From contig JBEKSS010000001.1 of NCBI GenBank assembly GCA_049516875.1, forward strand, positions 352,001-416,000: DNA of 64,000 nt. Reading direction: 5' to 3'. This document shows positions 1,197 to 20,051 of this stretch, in pieces. The notes under the pieces were generated by a model. The model was given only the letters and a program-made list of their open reading frames with translations. It did not search any database and was not told the DNA's origin. A program made the translations under genes and the position numbers. The stretch's first letter is position 1. Each line of letters opens with the position of its first letter. The stretch is from Candidatus Bathyarchaeia archaeon (GTDB lineage Archaea; Thermoproteota; Bathyarchaeia; Bathyarchaeales; Bathycorpusculaceae).

Positions 1197-1282
1197 ACCG
1201 CGACACCCTTTGTGCCTGAATAACATTCGACAATCCGTTAAAGGTTTGTCATTAGATTGCCGTTCCTTTCAGGTTTCGTACG

Positions 1283-1659
1283 TTTACGTAAGGTTCCTTC
1301 ACAATTTGGCTTGGGGTAAACGCGTGTCGTTGTGCGATTTTCAAGAGCTGTACCGTTATCTTGTGGATGATTTCGTCATTGAGTACTGTCGAAGACTTCA
1401 GAAGCGAGATTTCACAATGAAGAATGAGGACTTTTCAACGAACCGAAAGGGAAAGAGAGAATGCCTCAACGATTTCTTGACGCGCAATCTGACCAGAAGC
1501 TTGAACGAATACTTCCAGACCAAGGTTGAGATTCCCCGAATTAGAATGGGAAAGAAACAAGAAATTGAAACGTTAATCAATGAAGAAGCCTTACTACTTG
1601 CCAAATATCTGAGAAATGAAAGAGAAACGTGGAAACCAAGACTTTGTTCAGTTGATTGA
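1283..1659 (+). pseudogene. cas1: C-terminal remnant of a solo (casposase-like) Cas1
   Basis: YVRFLHNLAWGK..SLCDFQELYRYLVDDFVI matches the Cas1 GFLH...L..D..E..R..VD catalytic region; N-terminal part absent. Confidence 0.7.
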
Positions 1660-1697
1660 AGGCGCGCGTCAGGATGTAATGTGGGTCGGAAAAACAA

Positions 1698-2303
1698 ATG
1701 AGTTCAGTTAGTGATTGGCGGGTTACACCAAGAAGGAGTCGGAGTGAACTTCCGAAGGACATCACGCTTGACTTGAAAATAGATATTTTCCATGAACGCA
1801 TTGAGGGTTGGAAACTTGATATTGCAGACCAACTGATCAACGGCATCAAAGACGAAAAGGGTAACACAATAACAGAAGGCAATCCAAATGCGGGATATGC
1901 AGTTCTGGACATCATACTGAGCTACTTTGAAATGATCGCCAAGTATCAAGCTGGCTATCTAGGTATAAAGTCAAAACCGTACTTCAAAAAGGGAGTATGC
2001 ATGGTTTTCCCAGAATTGGAACGTGAAGACCCAAACTTGGTCGATATGCTGTTAGATACACTCTACTACGGTGCGCGCTGCGGGCTATATCATAACGGTC
2101 TTACTGACACTAGCATTTATCTGGAGGGCGGACGCCCACCAATAACTTTCCTGTCTGACGGGAAGGCGATTATAAATCCACATGAACTAGTTCTCGTAGT
2201 GAAGAGACACTTTGACAGTTACATAGAACAACTCAAAGACGTAAGAAATTTGGAACTAAGACAGAAATTTGAGAAAAGATTTGACGAAGATAATTCCCCG
2301 TAA
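1698..2303 (+). CDS. Hypothetical protein with HEPN-like RxxxxH motif
   Basis: 201-aa ORF, motif RCGLYH; lower GC than flanks. Confidence 0.6.
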   Translation: MSSVSDWRVTPRRSRSELPKDITLDLKIDIFHERIEGWKLDIADQLINGIKDEKGNTITEGNPNAGYAVLDIILSYFEMIAKYQAGYLGIKSKPYFKKGVCMVFPELEREDPNLVDMLLDTLYYGARCGLYHNGLTDTSIYLEGGRPPITFLSDGKAIINPHELVLVVKRHFDSYIEQLKDVRNLELRQKFEKRFDEDNSP

Positions 2304-2340
2304 GGTTTGGGTTTGGGAGTAAAGTTCTATCCAACCAACA
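2304..2340 (+). repeat. Hairpin repeat copy 1
   Basis: GGTTTGGGTTTGGGAGTAAAGTTCTATCCAACCAACA, starting right after the stop codon at 2303. Confidence 0.7.
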
Positions 2341-2400
2341 CCCAACCCGACCTAAAGAGACGAGGAAAAAAGAATGGAACTGACAGAAGATGAGGTGATT

Positions 2401-2715
2401 CTATTGGGCCTTTTTTAGCATTTCCAGAATTTCTTCGTTCTTGCTCACAATCTTTCTTTCCATTGTATTCCATGAGAGCCATGCCATCATGCATGGTTCC
2501 TTTTGGAGTTTTTGCATAGCGTCAAGACTCCCTTCGAACACCATGTATATTATGTGTTCTGGGAAGTCAGTCCATGAGCCAAGTAGCTTTATTCCCTGTT
2601 TCTTCGTCAGGCTGTCTATTGTAGATATGAATTCCAAAGTACTCTTCCGATGTTTCTCATGAAAAGCAGGGCAGTTGTCAGGAGTATGCCTACTTATATA
2701 CATGAATACTGGCAT
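2401..2715 (-). CDS. Small GYD/DUF3303-like protein
   Basis: 104 aa, HTPDNCP...GIKLLGSW..FPEH pattern; TATA-like TTTATAAA near 2738. Confidence 0.65.
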   Translation of the reverse strand: MPVFMYISRHTPDNCPAFHEKHRKSTLEFISTIDSLTKKQGIKLLGSWTDFPEHIIYMVFEGSLDAMQKLQKEPCMMAWLSWNTMERKIVSKNEEILEMLKKAQ

Positions 2716-2754
2716 AGTCCAACCTAATTCAGAATACTTTATAAATTTTATGGT

Positions 2755-2796
2755 GGGTTTGGGGTTTGGGGGTAAAGTTTTATCCCAGCCAACTTT
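2755..2796 (+). repeat. Hairpin repeat copy 2
   Basis: GGGTTTGGGGTTTGGGGGTAAAGTTTTATCCCAGCCAACTTT. Confidence 0.7.
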
Positions 2797-2864
2797 CGCA
2801 CCCGAGGATGCGGAGGTTCTATGCTACGTTTGAGACGGTGCGTTTGACGGATTGACTGTTTGCG

Positions 2865-5165
2865 TTACTGTGATGCCAATCTGATTTGTCTTTGTCCTTT
2901 GACTGCATCATAAATGGTTTTAACGGAGTAGCCGAAGGGACTGAGCATGTTGGCTGCTGATGTGTAGAGAAGAAGCAGGTACTTCTTGGTGTCCGAGTCC
3001 GTATTCTTCTCTATTAGCTCTTCTGCCAGAACTCTTCTTTCGTGACGTTTGTTTTTGGCGCTCGTGAAGAGGAACCTGACGTTCTTTCCTGCCGCAACCT
3101 CAGCTCCTTCTTTGATTAGTTGTTCGGCTGCGATGACTTGGCTGACCCGTTGCTTGTAGCTCTTCGGATCCTTCGACAAGTGTTTTGTTATTATCAGATC
3201 CCAGACTGAAACCTCGCCGTCCAGAAGCTTCTGCCTGTACTCTTTCAGCTCCTTCAAAGCGTCAGGAATCTTCTCGACAAATTCTTTCGAGTTTTTGGCC
3301 TCTGCAAGCACTTCCAACATTCTGGTCTGAGCACTGCACACAAATGGGGGAGTGTCTCTTCTTCTAACCTCCAGACCTCTTACCTTGATTTTGCCGCTCT
3401 CCATCACTCCGTAGTAACGGTTCAAAACACCCACGTTCGGATGCATTCTAGACGGAAGAAAAACAATCCAGTTATACCGACCCTCAAAACTCAGCGGAAT
3501 CCTCGTCTCCTCGCGTACCCGGCTGCACAATTCCTGATACTCCTCATCCGTTGCTCCTCTCTTCTTGAGCCAAAGCGAATCAACAATGCCGTGAACAATC
3601 CTGAATCCCTTTTCTTCGGCTATTCTTGACGCTCTCAGAAAGGCTTCTCTGCCGAAAGCGCAGACGCCTATGTGCCCGTCCACAGTGCCAAACCGTGCGT
3701 TTCTGTAGCCCAGGTAGCCGAAGCACGTGACGAGAATCCACTTCAGAGCCGTCTGCCGATTGTCGTAAACCTCCCTCAGCCTTTCATCCTCAGCCTCCGA
3801 CTTCAGCCTCTTGTAGAGCAGCCTCTTCGCGATCACGGGCTTCAGAGCCTTCGGAACGATTCCCACTTTTTTCTCGCAGATGTTGTAGCCCAGTTCTGGA
3901 ATGCGAAGCTTCGAGTCTGGACAGCACTTACACAGCACCGTTTCGGCAGAGATGTTGTTGTTAACCATCACCGTCGGGTACATAGAAGCAAAGTCAACCT
4001 CCCCAACATCGTCATGCACGCCCACCTCCGGCTCATAGACGAAGCCACCCTTATCCCCGACGAGCAGCTCAAAAGCAGACTTGAACGCCTCAGGAATACT
4101 CTTGTTCCTCGGAATCAACACGCCATCCTTCATAGCCTGATAAAACTGAATCGAAGACATGCTCGAACCTATCGACGAACGCGCAGCCGTGTGCAGCGAA
4201 ACCCTGCAAGTCCGCGCAATCTCAAACAACCCGTCCAGCCCACACTCGGCCAGGATAAACGTGTTCCTCTCGTCAACGTGAACCCTACCATACAAACGCC
4301 TCATCGGAGCCCTGTAAAAAGTGCGACCATAAGAGAAGAAAGTCCTTCCACGAACCTTCCTAGCAACAAGCGGCGTGCCTTCCCGACCCAAAACAAGCTT
4401 ATCCACAACCCCGTTAATCACCGCCCTCCGAACAAGGTAGACGAAAAGATACGAATCTCCACCCTTCGTAACAATAATATCTGGATCAAGCTCTTTAATC
4501 ACCTGCACGAATCGAAGCAACTTGTACTCCTCGTCGCCCGAATCGACGACTTCTCCGCCACCGCCTTGGCTCACCGTGATTCTGCTTACGGGATCGCTTG
4601 TCTTGGCAATCTTGCCCTGCTTGGCAACTTCCACGTCGATTCGCGAGATTCTCAAAGGCGGAATCGCGTAATCCACGCTTTCAGCCGAATCAAGCAGGCC
4701 ATACTTCAATCGGCCGCTCTCAGACTTGACGTCAACGAGCGCCAACGGAAAAACGTCACGATCGTAAAAGTACAGCTGCTCATGCTTCAAATCACAGTTA
4801 AAAACCTCGTACTGCAGGTACCTTCCAGACTTCAACACTCGACGAGTGAACGAAGACAGTCTTCTGCAGTCTTCGAGAACCACTTCGAGAACGTTGGACT
4901 CTTCGACGTCAGTTGCCTTCGCACGCCTTCGAACAAAATCCCAAGAAACAACCGCCCCGTCGTACGGAAGCTGAGCGGCAAGCCTCTCCAAGCCTTCCTC
5001 TTTTCCTGAAACGTAGATTGTGGGCTTGAAACTGTCCGTGAATCGCAGGCGTTCTCCGTTTTCACTTATAATCCAAACCGCAAACTCTCCCAGTTTGGAA
5101 GGGTATACGTCGAGTACCCAGCCCCTCACATGATCAGGGTTGAGCTGGCTTCTGTTTGACTGCAA
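2865..5165 (-). CDS. polB2: Family B DNA polymerase, PolB2 group
   Basis: DFASMYP (motif A), KWILVTCFGYLGY (B), HGIVDSLW (variant C), degenerate exonuclease domain, operon with iRadA and small ORF. Confidence 0.9.
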   Translation of the reverse strand: MQSNRSQLNPDHVRGWVLDVYPSKLGEFAVWIISENGERLRFTDSFKPTIYVSGKEEGLERLAAQLPYDGAVVSWDFVRRRAKATDVEESNVLEVVLEDCRRLSSFTRRVLKSGRYLQYEVFNCDLKHEQLYFYDRDVFPLALVDVKSESGRLKYGLLDSAESVDYAIPPLRISRIDVEVAKQGKIAKTSDPVSRITVSQGGGGEVVDSGDEEYKLLRFVQVIKELDPDIIVTKGGDSYLFVYLVRRAVINGVVDKLVLGREGTPLVARKVRGRTFFSYGRTFYRAPMRRLYGRVHVDERNTFILAECGLDGLFEIARTCRVSLHTAARSSIGSSMSSIQFYQAMKDGVLIPRNKSIPEAFKSAFELLVGDKGGFVYEPEVGVHDDVGEVDFASMYPTVMVNNNISAETVLCKCCPDSKLRIPELGYNICEKKVGIVPKALKPVIAKRLLYKRLKSEAEDERLREVYDNRQTALKWILVTCFGYLGYRNARFGTVDGHIGVCAFGREAFLRASRIAEEKGFRIVHGIVDSLWLKKRGATDEEYQELCSRVREETRIPLSFEGRYNWIVFLPSRMHPNVGVLNRYYGVMESGKIKVRGLEVRRRDTPPFVCSAQTRMLEVLAEAKNSKEFVEKIPDALKELKEYRQKLLDGEVSVWDLIITKHLSKDPKSYKQRVSQVIAAEQLIKEGAEVAAGKNVRFLFTSAKNKRHERRVLAEELIEKNTDSDTKKYLLLLYTSAANMLSPFGYSVKTIYDAVKGQRQIRLASQ

Positions 5166-5406
5166 CGAGTTCCTTCTCCAGACGCATTAGAGTCTTCTGC
5201 TGTTCCAGCAGGATGCACATGACCATCGACTCGAACACCTCGGGCCGCGTAGCGTTGCTTCCAGCCGAAGCGTGATTCCTGCACGCGTCAGTCATCCGTT
5301 CAAACGCCTCTCTGTCATCACTGCGCAAGGCCTTGGCAAACCCGTTCCAAGTCCGAATCTCCGTGTCTAAAGCAATCCGGTACGATTCAACCGTTTTCCC
5401 CATCAC
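5134..5406 (-). CDS. Small PolB2-associated protein (arCOG07300-like)
   Basis: MGKTVESYR...W.GF.KALR..DREAF; position between iRadA and polB2. Confidence 0.8.
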   Translation of the reverse strand: MMGKTVESYRIALDTEIRTWNGFAKALRSDDREAFERMTDACRNHASAGSNATRPEVFESMVMCILLEQQKTLMRLEKELVAVKQKPAQP

Positions 5407-6143
5407 ACACCACCTCTCACGAAATCGTCCAAAGTCAAATTCTCACATGGAAAATCAACACGTCCAAGCTTGAACAACGAATGCTTCTCGAGAGCAAACT
5501 GCTTGCCAAACGGGTACGTCCGCTTGTTCGTCACCGATATCGTGACGTTCGATCTTGCGCAAGCAACTGCGTGCAAGAAAGCACGGCGCCTAGAATAGGG
5601 GTGCGGCAAGCAAGTGGCAAGCACTATTGTGCCTTTCTTCTCGGCAAACTCGGAAACGTGAGCGCAGACCTGACTGAAAACCTCTCTGCTCTCGTCCGGC
5701 TTAATGTCCTTGTCGAGGTATAGTCCTTGAAAATCCGATATGATCACGAATTTCGCCTCATACTTGTCGATGGCTTCTTCGAGGCCGTCGAGGATTAGCG
5801 AAGTCATCTGGTGCATTGTGAACGCTCTTGAGATAAAGAATCGCTTAAGGATATCCTTCGGCCTGAGATGGTGCAGCCTAGCCAGCCGCGAAACCCTGTA
5901 CAGCCTGAACGTGTTTCCGCCGTCCACGAACACGACGCTTGATCCCAAGCCGCCCAACTGGCAGGGCAGACAAGCCCTAACAGCCAGAAGCGAAGACAAC
6001 GTCAAGACGTGTGGCAGGCCGTACATCACGGCGAAATCGCCCATCATGAACCCTGGGAACAGACTGTCTATGTTCTGCATGTTGAACGATAGCAAGGCTT
6101 GAGATGGAAGCGGCTTGATTAGGGTACTTTGCGCCAAAACCAT
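5403..6143 (-). CDS. Inactivated RadA-like protein
   Basis: RecA-fold segments VVFVDGGNTF and ISRAFTMHQ, no intact Walker A. Confidence 0.8.
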   Translation of the reverse strand: MVLAQSTLIKPLPSQALLSFNMQNIDSLFPGFMMGDFAVMYGLPHVLTLSSLLAVRACLPCQLGGLGSSVVFVDGGNTFRLYRVSRLARLHHLRPKDILKRFFISRAFTMHQMTSLILDGLEEAIDKYEAKFVIISDFQGLYLDKDIKPDESREVFSQVCAHVSEFAEKKGTIVLATCLPHPYSRRRAFLHAVACARSNVTISVTNKRTYPFGKQFALEKHSLFKLGRVDFPCENLTLDDFVRGGV

Positions 6144-6272
6144 TCACTTCCTCGAGTTAACAGGGATTAAGACACGGGCTTCCCTACACTTTTAACTGTT
6201 AGCCAGAAAAGTACGTCCATGAAAGGGGAGAGAGAAGAGTTAAAGTGAAGAAAGGCATGGAAAGCGCGCGCG

Positions 6273-6729
6273 GGAGACTCGTGGCGCTCGTGATTCTTTT
6301 AATGCGATGTTGAATTTTGGTTATCAGACGATTCTTTTTCCTGAGGTTTGGAAGGCTGTGAGCTATGCTGGGCTGGATTTCTATGCTGGATATTTACATG
6401 CTGATAGATCTGGAAAGCCTTCTCTTGTCTTGGATTTGATGGAGGAATTTCGCCAACAGCTTGTCGATCGGACCTTGGTGGGGCTGATCACAAGAAGCAT
6501 CATAAAACCTAACGAAATTTTGGCTACGGAAGCTGTTGAGGAAGGCCGAGTCTTGAGTAAGGATGTGGTTAAGGTTTTGTTGGCTAGTTTTCAGGAGCGT
6601 TTGGACAGTGAGGTGATGTTCAACGGTCAGAAAGGATCGTTGAAGAGCTTTATTTATTTGCAGGCACATTGTGTGGTGCGTTTTCTCTTGAAGGAAGCAG
6701 AGTATGTGCCCTTCTGTCTAGGATGGTAG
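6273..6729 (+). pseudogene. cas1: CRISPR Cas1 C-terminal fragment
   Basis: RGARDSFNAMLNFGY...GLDFYAGYLHADRSGKPSLVLDLMEEFRQQLVDR; homology starts at the GC run 6264-6272. Confidence 0.85.
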
Positions 6730-6779
6730 CTGTATGATAAAAAGAGAATTCTTTTTTTGTGTGTGCGGTTGTCAGGTGA

Positions 6780-7076
6780 TTGTTTTTGCGGTATGTTGTG
6801 ATTTATGATGTTTCGGATGATAATTTGCGGGCACTTGTTGCTGAGACGCTTAAGGATTATGGGTTGCAGCGGATTCAGTACAGTGGGTTCATGGGGGATC
6901 TTCGGCGGGATGAGTTGAACAGTTTGCTTGTGGACTTAAAGAATCTGATTAAGGATCTGGTTGAGAACGTTCTGCTTTTCTCTATGTGCGACAGTTGCTT
7001 GAAGGGAAAAAAAGAGGTAGGCAAGCCGAAGAAGTACCAGTTCAAGGAGGAGAAAGACAAGATTGCGTATTTTTAA
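6780..7076 (+). CDS. cas2: CRISPR-associated Cas2
   Basis: YVVIYDVSDD..R..VAETLKDYGLQRIQYSGF. Confidence 0.92.
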   Translation: MFLRYVVIYDVSDDNLRALVAETLKDYGLQRIQYSGFMGDLRRDELNSLLVDLKNLIKDLVENVLLFSMCDSCLKGKKEVGKPKKYQFKEEKDKIAYF

Positions 7077-7148
7077 TGGTGTATTGCTTGACAGTCGGTG
7101 CAAAACGTTTATGTATGCATTTGGTATCTATTGTATACGGTGGTTGTG

Positions 7149-7469
7149 TTGACGCTTAAGCCTTTGGCTGTAAGAGTGCCTGCAGAAGTGGAAAAAGAAA
7201 TTCGCGAAATCATTGAAGAAGAAAAGCTCGATAAAGCAACAGTAGTGAGGAACCTTCTTGAAATCGGCATAGCGGAATGGCGCAAGCAGACCGCGCTGGA
7301 ACTCTTGCAGAAAGGTAAAGTGACCTTTGCGAAGGCGGCCGAGACTGCAAGACTCTCTTTATGGGAGTTTGCTGACTTGGTGAAGCAGCGCAACGTCGAG
7401 TGGGTCCGCTACACGCCTGAAGAAGTTGAACGGGAGTTTAGTGAAGCGTCGGCGGCGAAGTGCAAGTGA
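7149..7469 (+). CDS. UPF0175 family predicted antitoxin
   Basis: ALELLQKGKVTFAKAAETARLSLWEF HTH with RHH-like N-terminus; start approximate. Confidence 0.8.
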   Translation: MTLKPLAVRVPAEVEKEIREIIEEEKLDKATVVRNLLEIGIAEWRKQTALELLQKGKVTFAKAAETARLSLWEFADLVKQRNVEWVRYTPEEVEREFSEASAAKCK

Positions 7470-7978
7470 AACCGCCAGTTTTCAATTCGACGCCCCTGAT
7501 TTACTTAACGAAGGCTGGGCTCAGCAGGGTTTTTGAGGGGTTGCAGGGTGAAAAGTTGACGTCGCCAGTTGTTAAGAGAGAGGTTGTTGATGAAGGCAAG
7601 CGCAGAGGCATTCCTGATGCGATTGTTTTGGATACGCTGTTTGTGAATGGAGTTTTCAAAGTTTGCGAACCTATGGATAAGAAGTTTTTGGCGAGGTTGT
7701 TGGAGACGCATGGGCTTCACTTGGCGGATGCTGAGGTTTTAACTATCGCTCGTGAACGTTCAGGAATCGCGGTGATTGATGATGAGGTGGCGAGGAAGAC
7801 TGCGAAGGTTTATGGTGTTGATTATGTTGGTTCGCCTTATGTTTTGATGCAGGCTGTCTGTGAAGGGCTTATTTCGAAAGCGAAGGCTAAGCAAGCTGTT
7901 AATGACATGGTTTCTGCGGGTTGGCATTGTAGCGTGGAGAGCTACGCGAAGATTATGGAAGCCTTAGAGAAACTGTAA
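7460..7978 (+). CDS. DUF3368 PIN-domain predicted toxin
   Basis: VFNSTPLIYL, V..EV, LHLADAEVL..A, IDD..AR..A; overlaps the antitoxin. Confidence 0.82.
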   Translation: MQVKPPVFNSTPLIYLTKAGLSRVFEGLQGEKLTSPVVKREVVDEGKRRGIPDAIVLDTLFVNGVFKVCEPMDKKFLARLLETHGLHLADAEVLTIARERSGIAVIDDEVARKTAKVYGVDYVGSPYVLMQAVCEGLISKAKAKQAVNDMVSAGWHCSVESYAKIMEALEKL

Positions 7979-7990
7979 GGGTTTTAAACG

Positions 7991-8480
7991 TTGGGCAAGT
8001 TTAGGGATGAATGGTTGAAGCGGCAACAGCGGTTGCCTGTTTCAGATATTGCTGAGTCTTTTGTCTCTGTTACTGATATCAAGCATTACGTTTATTGTCC
8101 CCGGTTGGTTTATTTTGATAGAGTTTTGCATGCGGCGCCAGTTTTTGGTTCTCAGCAAGAGGATAGTAAAGAATTGCATGAAGATTATGTTGCTAAAGAG
8201 CTCAGGAGAAAAGACGCAGTCTACTATTCGCCTGAGTTTGTTGGTGCCGAGAAGTTTTTGTTTACAACGTTGAGTTCTGGTGAGTTGGGGTTGCAGGGTA
8301 ACGTTGACTGCATAATCAAAACCGCGAAGGGCGAGTTTGTTCCTGTGGAGTACAAGAACATGAGCTCTGACGATGGCCCAGTTTGCATGGACCACAAGTA
8401 CCAACTCGTCGCCTACGCCTTGCTCATCGAAGAGAATTTTGGTACAATCGTTAAGCAGGGGTTTGTGAATTACATTATGG
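7991..8480 (+). pseudogene. cas4: Cas4, C-terminally truncated
   Basis: YVYCPR, G.VD, PVEYK, QLVAYALL present; C-terminal three-Cys Fe-S motif missing; frame runs on into unrelated sequence to 8623. Confidence 0.82.
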
Positions 8481-8543
8481 ACTCACAACACGATAGAGGA
8501 CAATACGACTGCGCGCGCTCGAGTCGCGGGGTGAGTCGCTCAG

Positions 8544-9221
8544 ATGAGGACAGAGATTTTTCCTTTTTCTCTTGGGTTCAACGACTGCTACATAATTCGA
8601 GAACAAGGCGTGATAATGATTGACGGTGGACCACCTAATAAGAAAATGGATTTAATCAAAGCGATGAAGGAAATCTCATTGAACCCTGAGAACATCAAGT
8701 TGATTGTCATAACTGATGGGCATCCAGACCACATTGGCTCTGCCAGAGACATCAAAGAACCCACAAAGGCGAAGATTGCAATGCACCGACTGGCAAAGGA
8801 TTGTCTTGAAACTGGAGAATGGAAAAAGATGCATACGCCTGGAGGGTGGATAGGCAGAAAAATGCTCGGTCGAGTTGTCACATGGTTTTATGGCGAGATT
8901 CCATCCGCTGAAGTTGAACTAGTTGTCGAAGATGATGGTCTGTCTTTGAAGGAGTATGGAATTTCTGGAAGAATTGTCTACACTCCTGGGCATACCATGG
9001 GTTCAGTTAGCGTGCTATTGGATTCTGGAGAGGCTTTTGTGGGAGACCTTGCAATGAACAAGCTTCCATTCAGGCTTGGCCCAGGGCTACCCACCGTTGC
9101 TGAAGACAGCGGTAAAGTCAAAGAAAGCTGGAGGAAATTACTGGAACTTGGGGCAACAACAGTCTATCCCGCACACGGAAAACCGTTCTCGGCCGAAGTA
9201 ATCAAGAAGGCTCTGAAGTGA
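8544..9221 (+). CDS. MBL-fold metallo-hydrolase
   Basis: TDGHPDHIG (first His replaced by Asp), TPGHTMGS, VGD, YPAHG. Confidence 0.85.
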   Translation: MRTEIFPFSLGFNDCYIIREQGVIMIDGGPPNKKMDLIKAMKEISLNPENIKLIVITDGHPDHIGSARDIKEPTKAKIAMHRLAKDCLETGEWKKMHTPGGWIGRKMLGRVVTWFYGEIPSAEVELVVEDDGLSLKEYGISGRIVYTPGHTMGSVSVLLDSGEAFVGDLAMNKLPFRLGPGLPTVAEDSGKVKESWRKLLELGATTVYPAHGKPFSAEVIKKALK

Positions 9222-9304
9222 TACATTAAAAGCATAAGCGCGCGCTGCGCATGTCTCGGTAAAATCAAGAACGCGCGAAGGAAGATTGCGTACGAGCGAG
9301 ATTT

Positions 9305-11365: not shown

Positions 11366-11565
11366 CTATTTCACGATAACATATGCTTAGAGCTGTCAAC
11401 TTATACTTTGTTGGCATAGCGTGCTAGGTTGTCGCGCGCGCTTTCTTGGAGTTTTGTCCAAGTCGCCAAAAGAGATATTGAGCAAATACATTAGGGCTTA
11501 TCTTGAGTGAGTGAAATTCTGCAACAAGTTTTATCTTTCGTGGTTGGTTTGTTTAATGGGGCGTT

Positions 11566-15308: not shown

Positions 15309-15869
15309 TTATTCGTAGAATATCAGTTGCTGTTCCTCGAGTATCCTGTGAAGCTTGTGCACGGCGTCATAGACGTCCTGTTCTCTTTTGGCTCCGGTGC
15401 AAACAAGGTTTCCGCTCGCAAACACCAGTATGACCACTTTGGGCTCGTCCATCCTGTAAATCAAGCCTGGAAACTGCTCCGGTTCATACATCGTTTTTCC
15501 AAGCTTGCTCACTGCCAGTTCCAAATCTATCTTTCCGCCTAAGCTTGCGGAAGCAACGATGTTCACAACCCTCAAGTCTGGCTTGCTGATGATGATTATT
15601 CCGCCCTTCTTCAGCTCCTTAACAACCGTCAAAACAGCCCTGCGCGCTTCCTTCTCCGATTTCGCTCCCGTGCAAACCATTTTACCAGAGCTAAAAATCA
15701 ACGTAGCCGTCTTCGGCCTCTTAAGCCTAAACACCAAGCCCGGAAACTGCTCCGGCCGATACTCCACCCCCGGATAACCCTTCACGATAGCGTTCAAGTC
15801 AACTCTCTGATTCAAAGTAGCAGACGCAACCACATTCTGAATATTGACGATAGCCTTGCTCTTCGACAT
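15309..15869 (-). CDS. tbp: TATA-box-binding protein
   Basis: Two repeats of N.VASA...Y.PEQFPGL..R...SG..VCTGAK. Confidence 0.97.
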   Translation of the reverse strand: MSKSKAIVNIQNVVASATLNQRVDLNAIVKGYPGVEYRPEQFPGLVFRLKRPKTATLIFSSGKMVCTGAKSEKEARRAVLTVVKELKKGGIIIISKPDLRVVNIVASASLGGKIDLELAVSKLGKTMYEPEQFPGLIYRMDEPKVVILVFASGNLVCTGAKREQDVYDAVHKLHRILEEQQLIFYE

Positions 15870-16130
15870 TAAACACAACTTCTTACAGTGAAGTGTGCAA
15901 ACACCTATTATAAACCCTTAGATCCAAGAGGTGCAGACTCCTCCCGGGAAACCATAGTATAAAGTGCCCGCCATGTTGAAAAACATCAAGAAAACTACAA
16001 AAAAATTTGCATAAATCAATTTCGTGTTCTACTGAAATTCTAGCAAGATACCCGAAAGCCGAACTTCACCGTACGAGCGAAACCCACCAGGGAGTAGACC
16101 TCGCGTGGTCCACACTCTGTTTCGCAAGCC

Positions 16131-16418
16131 CTACTCTTTTGTAAGAGCTATTTCCAACGTTGAAACATTCCGCGCCCTGTTTTCTCCTTCTCTCGGTGGC
16201 ATTTCCTCTGTTCCTATGGAGATTCTGCTTACTTTTAGGTCTTTTAGGAAGCGTCTTCTGGTTATTTCAGCTACGTCAACAGCTGTGGCAATTGCTCGGC
16301 CTCGCGCTTTCAAGATTACCTCCTTAGCATCGCCCGCGGACAGTCTTGTGATAACTGCCAGAACATAGTCCATCGGTGTTTTGCTTCCAACGAAAACGAT
16401 TCCTGATTTTTCCGACAT
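16131..16418 (-). CDS. albA: DNA/RNA-binding protein Alba
   Basis: VFVGSK.PMDYVLA...KARGRAI.TAVDVAE...NVSTLEI. Confidence 0.96.
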
Positions 16419-16531
16419 TTTTCATCACTCTTTTCATCATTTATTGTGTGTGTAACGTTGCCGTGTTTCTTCTCGTCCTTCAACAACAGAACGCTACTGT
16501 CCTATACTACGCATACTTCCTTATAAAGCGA

Positions 16532-17071
16532 TCAAGTAACAGAACGCACTTCTTTCTTAGACTTCTCGAATGCTTTTTCTCTCCACTTCCTTTTCCAGCT
16601 TTTCCATCCTGTCTTCACGAGTTTTTCTCTCAGTTCAGGTCTTTCCCCAACCCATTCCAGAAGTGTCCAGAAGCGCCTCTCATCTTCCAGCGTTTCCGCT
16701 GGCACTCCTACTTCAACACACCATCTTATGTAGCCTCTTTCAACCATCTCTTGGAGTTCGCCTGTGATTTCCACTTCTTCGACCTTGAATCCCCGGTCTC
16801 GCAAGCGTCCACGTACGCTGGAAAGAACGTATCCAGAGCAGACCTTAAAGCGGGTTTCCAAATCAGGCCGCATAACCTCAACGATCTCATCAGCAATCTT
16901 CACTGCGTCATCCAGATACTTTTTATTCTCGAAGTTCGGCGGCTGGAAGGACGAGACAGGGATCCTGCGTTCCATGTACCGACGGTCTGGAGGCTTGAGG
17001 GCACCGATTACTACGCCCAAGATAAGGTCTCCCCATCCAGCATCATCTATCAAGATATCCTTTCTGGACAT
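16532..17071 (-). CDS. Hypothetical protein with RNase HII-like N-terminus
   Basis: ILIDDAGWGDLILGVVIG resembles GIDEAGRG; start uncertain. Confidence 0.6.
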   Translation of the reverse strand: MSRKDILIDDAGWGDLILGVVIGALKPPDRRYMERRIPVSSFQPPNFENKKYLDDAVKIADEIVEVMRPDLETRFKVCSGYVLSSVRGRLRDRGFKVEEVEITGELQEMVERGYIRWCVEVGVPAETLEDERRFWTLLEWVGERPELREKLVKTGWKSWKRKWREKAFEKSKKEVRSVT

Positions 17072-20014: not shown

Positions 20015-20051
20015 TGCTGGTTGGACAAAACTTCACCCCAGAACCCAAACC
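20015..20051 (-). repeat. Hairpin repeat copy 3
   Basis: Reverse strand GGTTTGGGTTCTGGGGTGAAGTTTTGTCCAACCAGCA. Confidence 0.65.

Follow-up and report, generated by a model that had tools for sequence, protein, structure and literature searches.

Several described systems resemble in part either M1, the name that we give to a repeat of about 40 bp in the genome of a soil archaeon of the Bathyarchaeia, or its setting. M1 was met in a stretch of 64,000 nucleotides (nt), hereafter the window, which covers positions 352,001 to 416,000 of contig C1 of genome G000 (2.43 Mb in 20 contigs, 97% complete); near its left end an initial annotation had seen a Cas1-like fragment followed by single genes separated by a hairpin repeat, and had proposed a Cas1-linked gene-cassette array. 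Repetitive extragenic palindromes (REP) and bacterial interspersed mosaic elements (BIME), which go with RAYT transposases, are short and imperfectly palindromic, like M1, and number tens of copies outside genes, on either strand, often past the 3'-ends of genes and in local clusters. Integron cassette arrays share with the clusters of M1 the gene-sized units, mostly in one orientation, with a strain-variable content that includes some defence genes. Their attC sites are recognised by folded structure and vary in sequence. CRISPR arrays have, like M1, direct repeats of around 37-40 bp near cas genes. Finally, casposons and Cas1-solo genes (Krupovic et al. 2014, PMC4046053) stand outside CRISPR-cas loci. 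The solo-cas1 family of G000 is like these in that cas1 lies outside CRISPR-cas, is multicopy and decays as a transposase gene would; in the window, moreover, a family-B DNA polymerase gene lies 1.2 kb from the cas1 fragment.

The two repeats of this locus, R1 and R2, are very probably copies of the dispersed M1 element lying in variable DNA. We further lean, by a narrower measure of confidence, towards reading M1 as a promoter-derived punctuation signal of the mobile gene pool of one Bathyarchaeia family, the window holding one mosaic island, with a small gene that two copies happen to flank and, next to it, a dead piece of solo cas1. A gene-cassette array built by Cas1 is an unlikely origin of the arrangement.

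M1 consists of a nearly invariant 17-nt core, GGGGTAAAGTTTTATCC, which we read in the direction GGGG to TATCC, between a 12-nt G/T-rich arm and a 10-nt C/A-rich arm. Around the core, only positions -12 to +27 have a high information content, and there is no conservation beyond. R1 (2304-2345, + strand) has the G/T-rich arm, a core with 2 mismatches and the C/A-rich arm, and it begins at the base after the TAA stop codon of a 201-aa open reading frame (ORF; 1698-2303, +). R2 (2756-2795, +) has the exact core. The two copies are 89% identical over the aligned 27 nt and are spaced by 453 nt, in agreement with the initial annotation, which had placed one repeat right after the stop codon of the 201-aa gene and a second one around 450 bp further on. 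A 23-nt pattern matched the window twice, against no match in 100 shuffles, and the E-values of R1 and R2 in a sequence-model scan were 6e-10 and 1.5e-11. The same scan gave only one further copy in the window, a weaker one at 20016-20051 (- strand), which sits in DNA not shared with the congeners. Over the whole of G000 we found 54 copies at ≤2 mismatches on both strands (22 without mismatch, 16 with one and 16 with two), while the reversed pattern of the core, used as control, had no match. We also observed that M1 is often bordered by strand-asymmetric low-complexity tracts of up to 97 nt, in which C is missing on the 5' side and G on the 3' side (for example C4:14200-14348, C9:89184-89268, C9:105832-105907 and C8:563-636). 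G000 has 55 tracts of ≥45 nt without G or without C, and by manual tally about 20 of them lie within 100 nt of M1.

Regarding the distribution, M1 (≤1 mismatch) was present in 13 of the 41 genomes sampled around G000, all 13 belonging to family f1. It was carried by all four other genomes of the genus and by 12 of the 24 other genomes of the family, across at least nine genera, and by none of the 16 genomes from other families of the order. The exact 17-mer core was also found in 11 IMG/VR contigs, seven of them with typical arms; the other four were taken as chance matches because of their 30-37% G+C and their unrelated flanks. One IMG/VR contig, which is like a head-tail virus (L109, 1720-7997), carries portal and terminase genes followed by a cas1 3' piece, a Shedu-domain gene, M1 and a TIR-domain gene. 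The consulted parts of PMC6393860, PMC10848311 and PMC11697101 mention neither the repeat nor a solo cas1 of Bathyarchaeia, although their supplements may list such genes.

Within G000 the copies are clustered. A neighbour at ≤3 kb was found for 38 of the 54, whereas 300 random placements gave a mean of 6.4 and a maximum of 16. Neighbouring copies are spaced by 437-2513 nt, with one or two genes in each interval, the exceptions being two pairs that almost adjoin, at 27 and 57 nt. The comparison with the congeners places M1 in DNA that varies. Reading the 20 copies of G002 and G004 against G000, we found none inside a homology block continuing on both sides; all were at synteny breaks, and in 10 of the 20 a homology block ended ≤100 nt from the repeat. 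Two cases were followed at base resolution; in both, a module that the genomes share at 96-98% identity stopped at M1, and the sequence beyond was unrelated. Furthermore, in every comparison M1 was accompanied by other non-shared DNA and a bare 40-bp insertion in collinear DNA was never seen. M1 belongs to the flexible genome of a single Bathyarchaeia family, namely to integrated elements, proviruses and variable accessory or defence islands.

The apparent likeness of M1 to archaeal promoters with BRE (B recognition element) and TATA boxes, and to the highly conserved promoter sets of some mobile genomes, comes from its core. As judged by eye, the core resembles both the boxes of the form CCGAAAG-CTCTAAAT that are held by the upstream regions of the tRNA genes of G000 and a second dispersed motif, M2 (GCGGAAAAGTTATAGC), of which G000 has 31 copies at ≤2 mismatches. 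M2 shares with M1 the layout of arm and core, around 23 of 33 positions agreeing by eye, and a hybrid of the two is found at C14:7873. M2 lies at a fixed distance upstream of paralogous genes, among them GNAT acetyltransferases, and it has a sense gene within 150 nt downstream in 17 of 24 cases and an antisense gene in 4 of 24. In addition, the ATG of a 272-aa methyltransferase-like ORF is preceded, at exactly 25 nt, by a variant of M1. Because of the likeness to the tRNA boxes, the kinship with M2 and this variant, M1 looks promoter-derived, yet most of its copies are not in a position to drive a coding gene.

That M1 acts as a promoter-derived transcription-control signal is a tentative proposal, to which we give somewhat less than an even chance. 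The core would be read by basal factors or by a dedicated DNA-binding protein, and M1 would punctuate modules, either by promoting transcription outwards or in antisense or by marking a boundary or a termination site behind the 3'-ends of genes. It might also serve as a ready junction for the recombination that reshuffles modules, because the same sequence is present in many places.

A number of observations weigh against a plain promoter. Among the 38 copies with ≤1 mismatch, a sense gene starts ≤150 nt downstream in only eight, and 22 face the 3'-end or the body of an antisense gene; thus, a fixed position and direction before transcribed genes was not what we found for M1, although room is left for non-coding transcripts. 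R1 itself points into the 3'-end of the 104-aa gene that follows it and R2 into that of the polymerase gene. The spacing to downstream starts is variable, from +25 to more than +140 nt, and the core holds about 29 bits, which is far above the needs of a basal promoter. Most copies therefore differ from archaeal promoters both in lacking a sense gene and in a much higher information content. On a gene map made with a crude longest-ORF caller, 17 of the 54 copies fell inside called ORFs, mostly short and doubtful ones, and some copies adjoin housekeeping genes (seryl-tRNA synthetase, TFE-alpha, TrmO). In favour of an array reading, orientation is common to 18 of the 25 neighbouring pairs (two-sided binomial, about 0.04). 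Finally, cas1 keeps company with M1: in G000 and G041 a copy of M1 (≤3 mismatches) lies ≤2 kb downstream of the 3'-end of a solo cas1 in 9 of 14 contexts, and a solo-cas1 3' piece is present in three of the seven genuine IMG/VR contigs.

The remaining positional data, taken from the same gene map, bear on whether M1 is mainly an element of transcript 3'-ends, i.e. a terminator or a stabilising hairpin transcribed from either side. The intergenic copies were distributed as 19 tandem, 10 convergent and 6 divergent, with two at contig edges, and these shares are close to the length shares of the respective regions. The median distance of M1 was 80 nt to gene 3'-ends and 143 nt to 5'-ends, and by manual tally 28 of the 54 copies follow a stop codon by ≤100 nt on one or both sides. 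In the window, all three genes that end beside R1 or R2 stop 12-79 nt before it. T runs stand in the G/T-rich arm of M1, which is the first arm on either strand. Termination, however, needs no invariant core of 17 nt, no T run follows the stem, and the stem itself did not behave as a conserved structure. The outer stem is paired in only about half of the copies. In an alignment of 27 copies with a hairpin of 17 pairs, 65.6% of the cells were paired; shuffling gave 66.3%, 351 of the 500 shuffled sets being as high, and the covariation score was 0.160 against 0.165. Nor did an arm fold better with its own partner than with that of another copy (mean -10.8 vs -12.1 kcal/mol, p = 0.93). Thus, the imperfect palindrome that the initial annotation described is visible, but the hairpin as a selected structure is unsupported: the arms are a matter of shared composition, G/T and then C/A on either strand, rather than pairing partners. 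We consider it improbable that M1 is mainly a 3'-end element.

A further explanation is that M1 is a selfish miniature mobile repeat of the kind of REP or of miniature inverted-repeat transposable elements (MITE), copied into intergenic DNA by an enzyme acting in trans and with no necessary function for the genes that flank it. Near-identical copies in the at least nine genera, the palindromic form, the presence on both strands and in all three intergenic types near their length shares would agree with this, as would the nine of 54 copies that lie within 3 kb of a contig end. Furthermore, G000 does hold true MITEs. Nevertheless, a MITE has sharp ends, whereas the logo of M1 fades gradually, its arms vary in length and type and pass into variable low-complexity sequence, and it has no target duplication. 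RAYT transposases are of the Y1 type, and G000 had no match to PF01797, which had matches in 6 of 14 control genomes. M1 also differs from REP in that the centre is conserved instead of the stem, is like a promoter box, and stands between arms without covariation, and in that it is confined to variable DNA. When we add the failure to see a bare insertion in collinear DNA and the kinship with M2, which is fixed before genes, a selfish repeat seems to us possible but not probable. The MITE family itself is 190 bp long, with 11 copies in G000 (e.g. C9:105334-105514, C1:320458-320641 and C15:4336-4522) and sharp inverted ends that begin with TAGCGCGCATG; one of these lies immediately next to the stop codon of a fragment of solo cas1.

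The Cas1-like fragment lies at 1282-1659 (+ strand; frame 1282-1656). Its frame matched NCBIfam TIGR00287 (positions 219-324 of 327, E 8.9e-7) and Pfam Cas_Cas1 (PF01867; profile positions 215-281 of 283, E 9.5e-5), the latter with 22.1 bits, 0.2 below the cut-off of 22.3. It was 59% identical to residues 220-337 of a full-length Cas1 of 341 aa encoded elsewhere in the genome (G000:C9:118082-119107), which reached 127.6 bits with Pfam and 125.5 bits with TIGR00287, both above the cut-off. The CRISPR-type cas1 piece at 6307-6729, on the contrary, was only 27% identical to this full-length protein. The initial annotation was therefore right in seeing a Cas1-like C-terminal fragment that is divergent from the CRISPR cas1 at 6.3 kb. 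The N-terminal two thirds would not fit, since the neighbouring gene starts at 1226, 56 nt upstream. Judged from its sequence, the piece is a dead 3' remnant, or pseudogene, of a multicopy solo-cas1 family, covering approximately residues 220-337 of 341. Calling it a solo Cas1 was correct in so far as this cas1 stands apart from CRISPR-cas, as in a relative with a solo Cas1 copy 86% identical in protein, where neither cas2 nor an array was found within 8 kb, but it is not an active gene.

Across the 41 genomes we found 11 full-length copies of the family, in eight genomes, and dozens of pieces. The pieces, seven in G000 and at least seven in G041, are mostly 3'-ends with varied 5' break points, a bias that may be partly an effect of detection because the C-terminus is the best conserved part. 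When compared with structures of the Protein Data Bank, the solo Cas1 was at a similar distance from several Cas1 structures, the best being 4n06 (E 3.4e-12). The neighbourhoods of the 11 full-length copies differ from each other and share a few recurrent families, all unnamed; Pfam, PHROGs and PADLOC gave no confident names for the genes beside solo cas1. Two of the recurrent neighbours were read, by eye only, as a P-loop ATPase and a primase-like protein.

The family is also unlike casposons in several respects. A blastp search against all the ORFs of the 11 neighbourhoods returned no homologue of the polymerase of the window, whose module moves separately, and the solo Cas1 has 341 aa and ends with the Cas1 domain. 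We considered the 3'-end of cas1 as a terminal inverted repeat of full-length elements and rejected it, given that 10 of the 11 copies had no inverted partner in contexts of 7-20 kb; there was one marginal 18-nt match. Past the stop codon, no sequence was conserved among 22 solo-cas1 copies. Separately, we observed three inverted pairs of solo-cas1 3' pieces with their 3'-ends outward (L115, 4167-4509, in G020:C8; L116, 1751-4088, in G020:C58; L100, 3205-6793, in G041). The arms are of 89-132 nt and 71-74% complementary and finish at the cas1 stop codon or close to it, and in the G020:C8 pair, which was read to the base, there are 79 nt between the arms and each arm ends at the cas1 stop codon. 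These pairs look like the ends of a putative non-autonomous element.

The question is then whether M1 serves as a recombination site for the insertion or exchange of gene-sized modules, in the manner of integrons or CRISPR arrays, with solo Cas1 or another recombinase as the enzyme. The proximity to cas1 is real: of the eight solo-cas1 loci of G000, three have M1 at ≤1 kb, a distance found for 3.5% of random positions (p = 0.002), in addition to the downstream contexts and the IMG/VR contigs mentioned above. In G003 and a close relative, a full-length solo cas1 has around it 4-5 copies of M1 in the same orientation (5 of 5 and 5 of 6). A cassette site would also suit the spacing by one or two genes, the bias of orientation, the modules whose homology stops at M1, and a solo cas1 that is multicopy, rich in fragments and, in this, similar to a transposase gene. 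However, the control markers co-occur with M1 in the same way, 3 of 11 MITE copies and 6 of 24 M2 copies being within 1 kb of it. Since these are about as close to M1 as cas1 is, the link is to variable DNA in general and not to Cas1. The orientation of M1 relative to cas1 was the same in five cases and opposite in four, and the phyletic patterns do not match: G008 and G030 have a full-length solo cas1 and no M1 was found in them at ≤1 mismatch, while M1 is present in G005, G007, G010 and G022, where solo cas1 was not found. The arms of neighbouring copies were no more alike than those of distant ones (mean Hamming distance 17.3 vs 16.8, p = 0.72) and therefore they are not fresh target duplications such as an insertion of the Cas1 type would make. 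To this must be added the lack of pairing covariation, the other island junctions of the window at which the model scan gave no M1 copy, and a homologue of the 104-aa gene in G041 with no M1 within 1.5 kb.

The comparison with the described arrays points in the same direction. Unlike attC, M1 is invariant in sequence and has no structural covariation. Unlike integrons, its clusters have no integrase fixed at an array end, 7 of the 25 pairs are in opposite orientation, and the genes run in either direction with promoter boxes of their own. Regarding a tyrosine recombinase at the head of an array, genes or pieces of this kind do lie near some copies (for instance, 143 nt from C1:186297), but none of the 10 matches to PF00589 in G000 falls in the island of the window (the nearest is at C1:429592), and those near other M1 clusters take no fixed end. 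Unlike a CRISPR array, with its spacers of tens of nt, the 453-nt spacing holds a gene, and M1 is dispersed on both strands. Hence, of the Cas1-linked cassette array there remain the local gene-sized clusters, the majority of co-oriented pairs and the proximity to cas1; against the array speak the spread over the whole genome on both strands, the MITE and M2 copies that are about as close, and the lack of likeness between neighbouring arms. We give little credence to M1 as a cassette site. In its fullest form, the M1 clusters would be archaeal cassette platforms, an integrase of the solo-Cas1 family would insert or swap gene-sized modules at M1, some of them with defence genes, and the cas1 3' pieces would be the ends of non-autonomous relatives of a new Cas1 transposon without polymerase. 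We keep a small probability for this idea, given the spacing by gene-sized units, the bias of orientation, the borders of modules that fall at M1 and the peculiar biology of solo cas1. Under the punctuation signal that we favour, the Cas1 remnant would not be the builder of the arrangement; it would adjoin M1 because both come from the same mobile gene pool.

The composition of the locus can be followed by comparison with the congeners. On the left, an amidohydrolase-family gene (3-1226, - strand; Pfam Amidohydro_1, E 9.7e-26) is the conserved anchor: positions 1-1248 are kept at 78-86% identity in all four congeners and homology ends at 1248. In G004 and G002 this side is joined, after 56 nt, to the counterpart of the sequence from 9257 onwards, which adjoins an XPD-type helicase gene. 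The segment between is absent from that junction and therefore 1249-9256 is a strain-specific island of 8 kb, which includes all the features of the initial annotation. It is a mosaic, between the amidohydrolase and the XPD-type helicase genes, of gene-sized modules of different origin: the dead solo-cas1 3' piece, two accessory genes, a relocatable polymerase module and a wrecked CRISPR adaptation locus.

The two accessory genes are those around R1. The 201-aa gene belongs to an uncharacterised and widespread family (98 homologues at E ≤ 1e-3), with no match for its protein in Pfam, NCBIfam, PHROGs or PADLOC; the Atlas structure model had a predicted template modelling score (pTM) of 0.86. 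The 104-aa gene (2401-2715, - strand) has a weak match to DUF3303 (E 0.06) and paralogues, 38-45% identical, on contigs C4 and C14 of G000. As had been annotated, it is in the opposite orientation and has a TATA-like box of its own, an A/T-rich stretch at 2738-2750, 23-35 nt upstream of the ATG. In G041 the sequence most similar to the cas1 fragment (84% nt identity) lies 8 kb from the homologue of the 104-aa gene (79%). As for the genes next to M1, nine of the 20 that were scanned had no Pfam match, and the named ones include GNAT enzymes, methyltransferases, a winged helix-turn-helix regulator, RidA and a metallo-beta-lactamase (MBL) hydrolase.

The polymerase module (2865-6249, - strand) contains three genes, recognised with Pfam and NCBIfam unless stated otherwise: the family-B DNA polymerase (PolB, 2865-5165), a 90-aa gene (5134-5406) that matches phrog_30126 (E 1.5e-7), and a RadA/Rad51-like ATPase (5403-6143). 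The block from 2874 to 6249 is 79% identical to G003:C7:2849-6222, where it is placed between genes that in G000 are on contig C2. Only partial matches of the block, at 64-70% identity, were seen in G002, G004 and G001, and there is a fragment copy on G000:C14. The decayed CRISPR adaptation and accessory genes (6307-9221, + strand), identified by profile matches, comprise the CRISPR-type cas1 3' fragment (6307-6729), cas2 (6780-7076), UPF0175 (7098-7469), which forms with DUF3368 (7460-7978) a gene pair inside the remnant, a cas4-like gene (7991-8623) and an MBL hydrolase (8544-9221). No CRISPR array was found in the G000 assembly with a k-mer scan, nor in the window with two repeat finders, and the Rfam and tRNA scans of the window gave no matches. 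Further to the right, at 15310-16544, there is a multicopy element, probably an insertion sequence, of which all four congeners have many copies (79-88% identity).

Just past the cas1 stop codon there is a (GC)n run (1662-1668), one of about 1100 such runs, which are mostly intergenic. Alternating GC runs also occur in the window at 6264-6272, 8511-8518, 9238-9245, 9272-9277 and 11433-11441, one of them at the right junction of the 8-kb island. In G000, GCGCGC is found 1412 times and GCGCGCGC 447 times, and 61-68% of these fall in the intergenic 14.6% of the genome; other GC-rich palindromes have 300-570 occurrences each and are mostly genic. We rejected a fixed link between M1 and these runs, as 17% of the M1 copies lie ≤60 nt from one, the same as random intergenic sites.

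If the ordinary reading is true, the outcome is a useful annotation with no new mechanism. The solo-cas1 family, which is multicopy, mostly represented by 3'-ends, without polymerase or terminal repeats and sometimes on provirus-like contigs, bears on Cas1 integrases outside CRISPR. Little is known of genome regulation and reshuffling in the Bathyarchaeia, an abundant, uncultured group. M1 could be used as a marker for variable islands and proviruses in these genomes, and a 40-bp signal that is conserved to the base across genera and marks the borders of mobile modules would give a handle on how such modules are expressed, insulated and exchanged.

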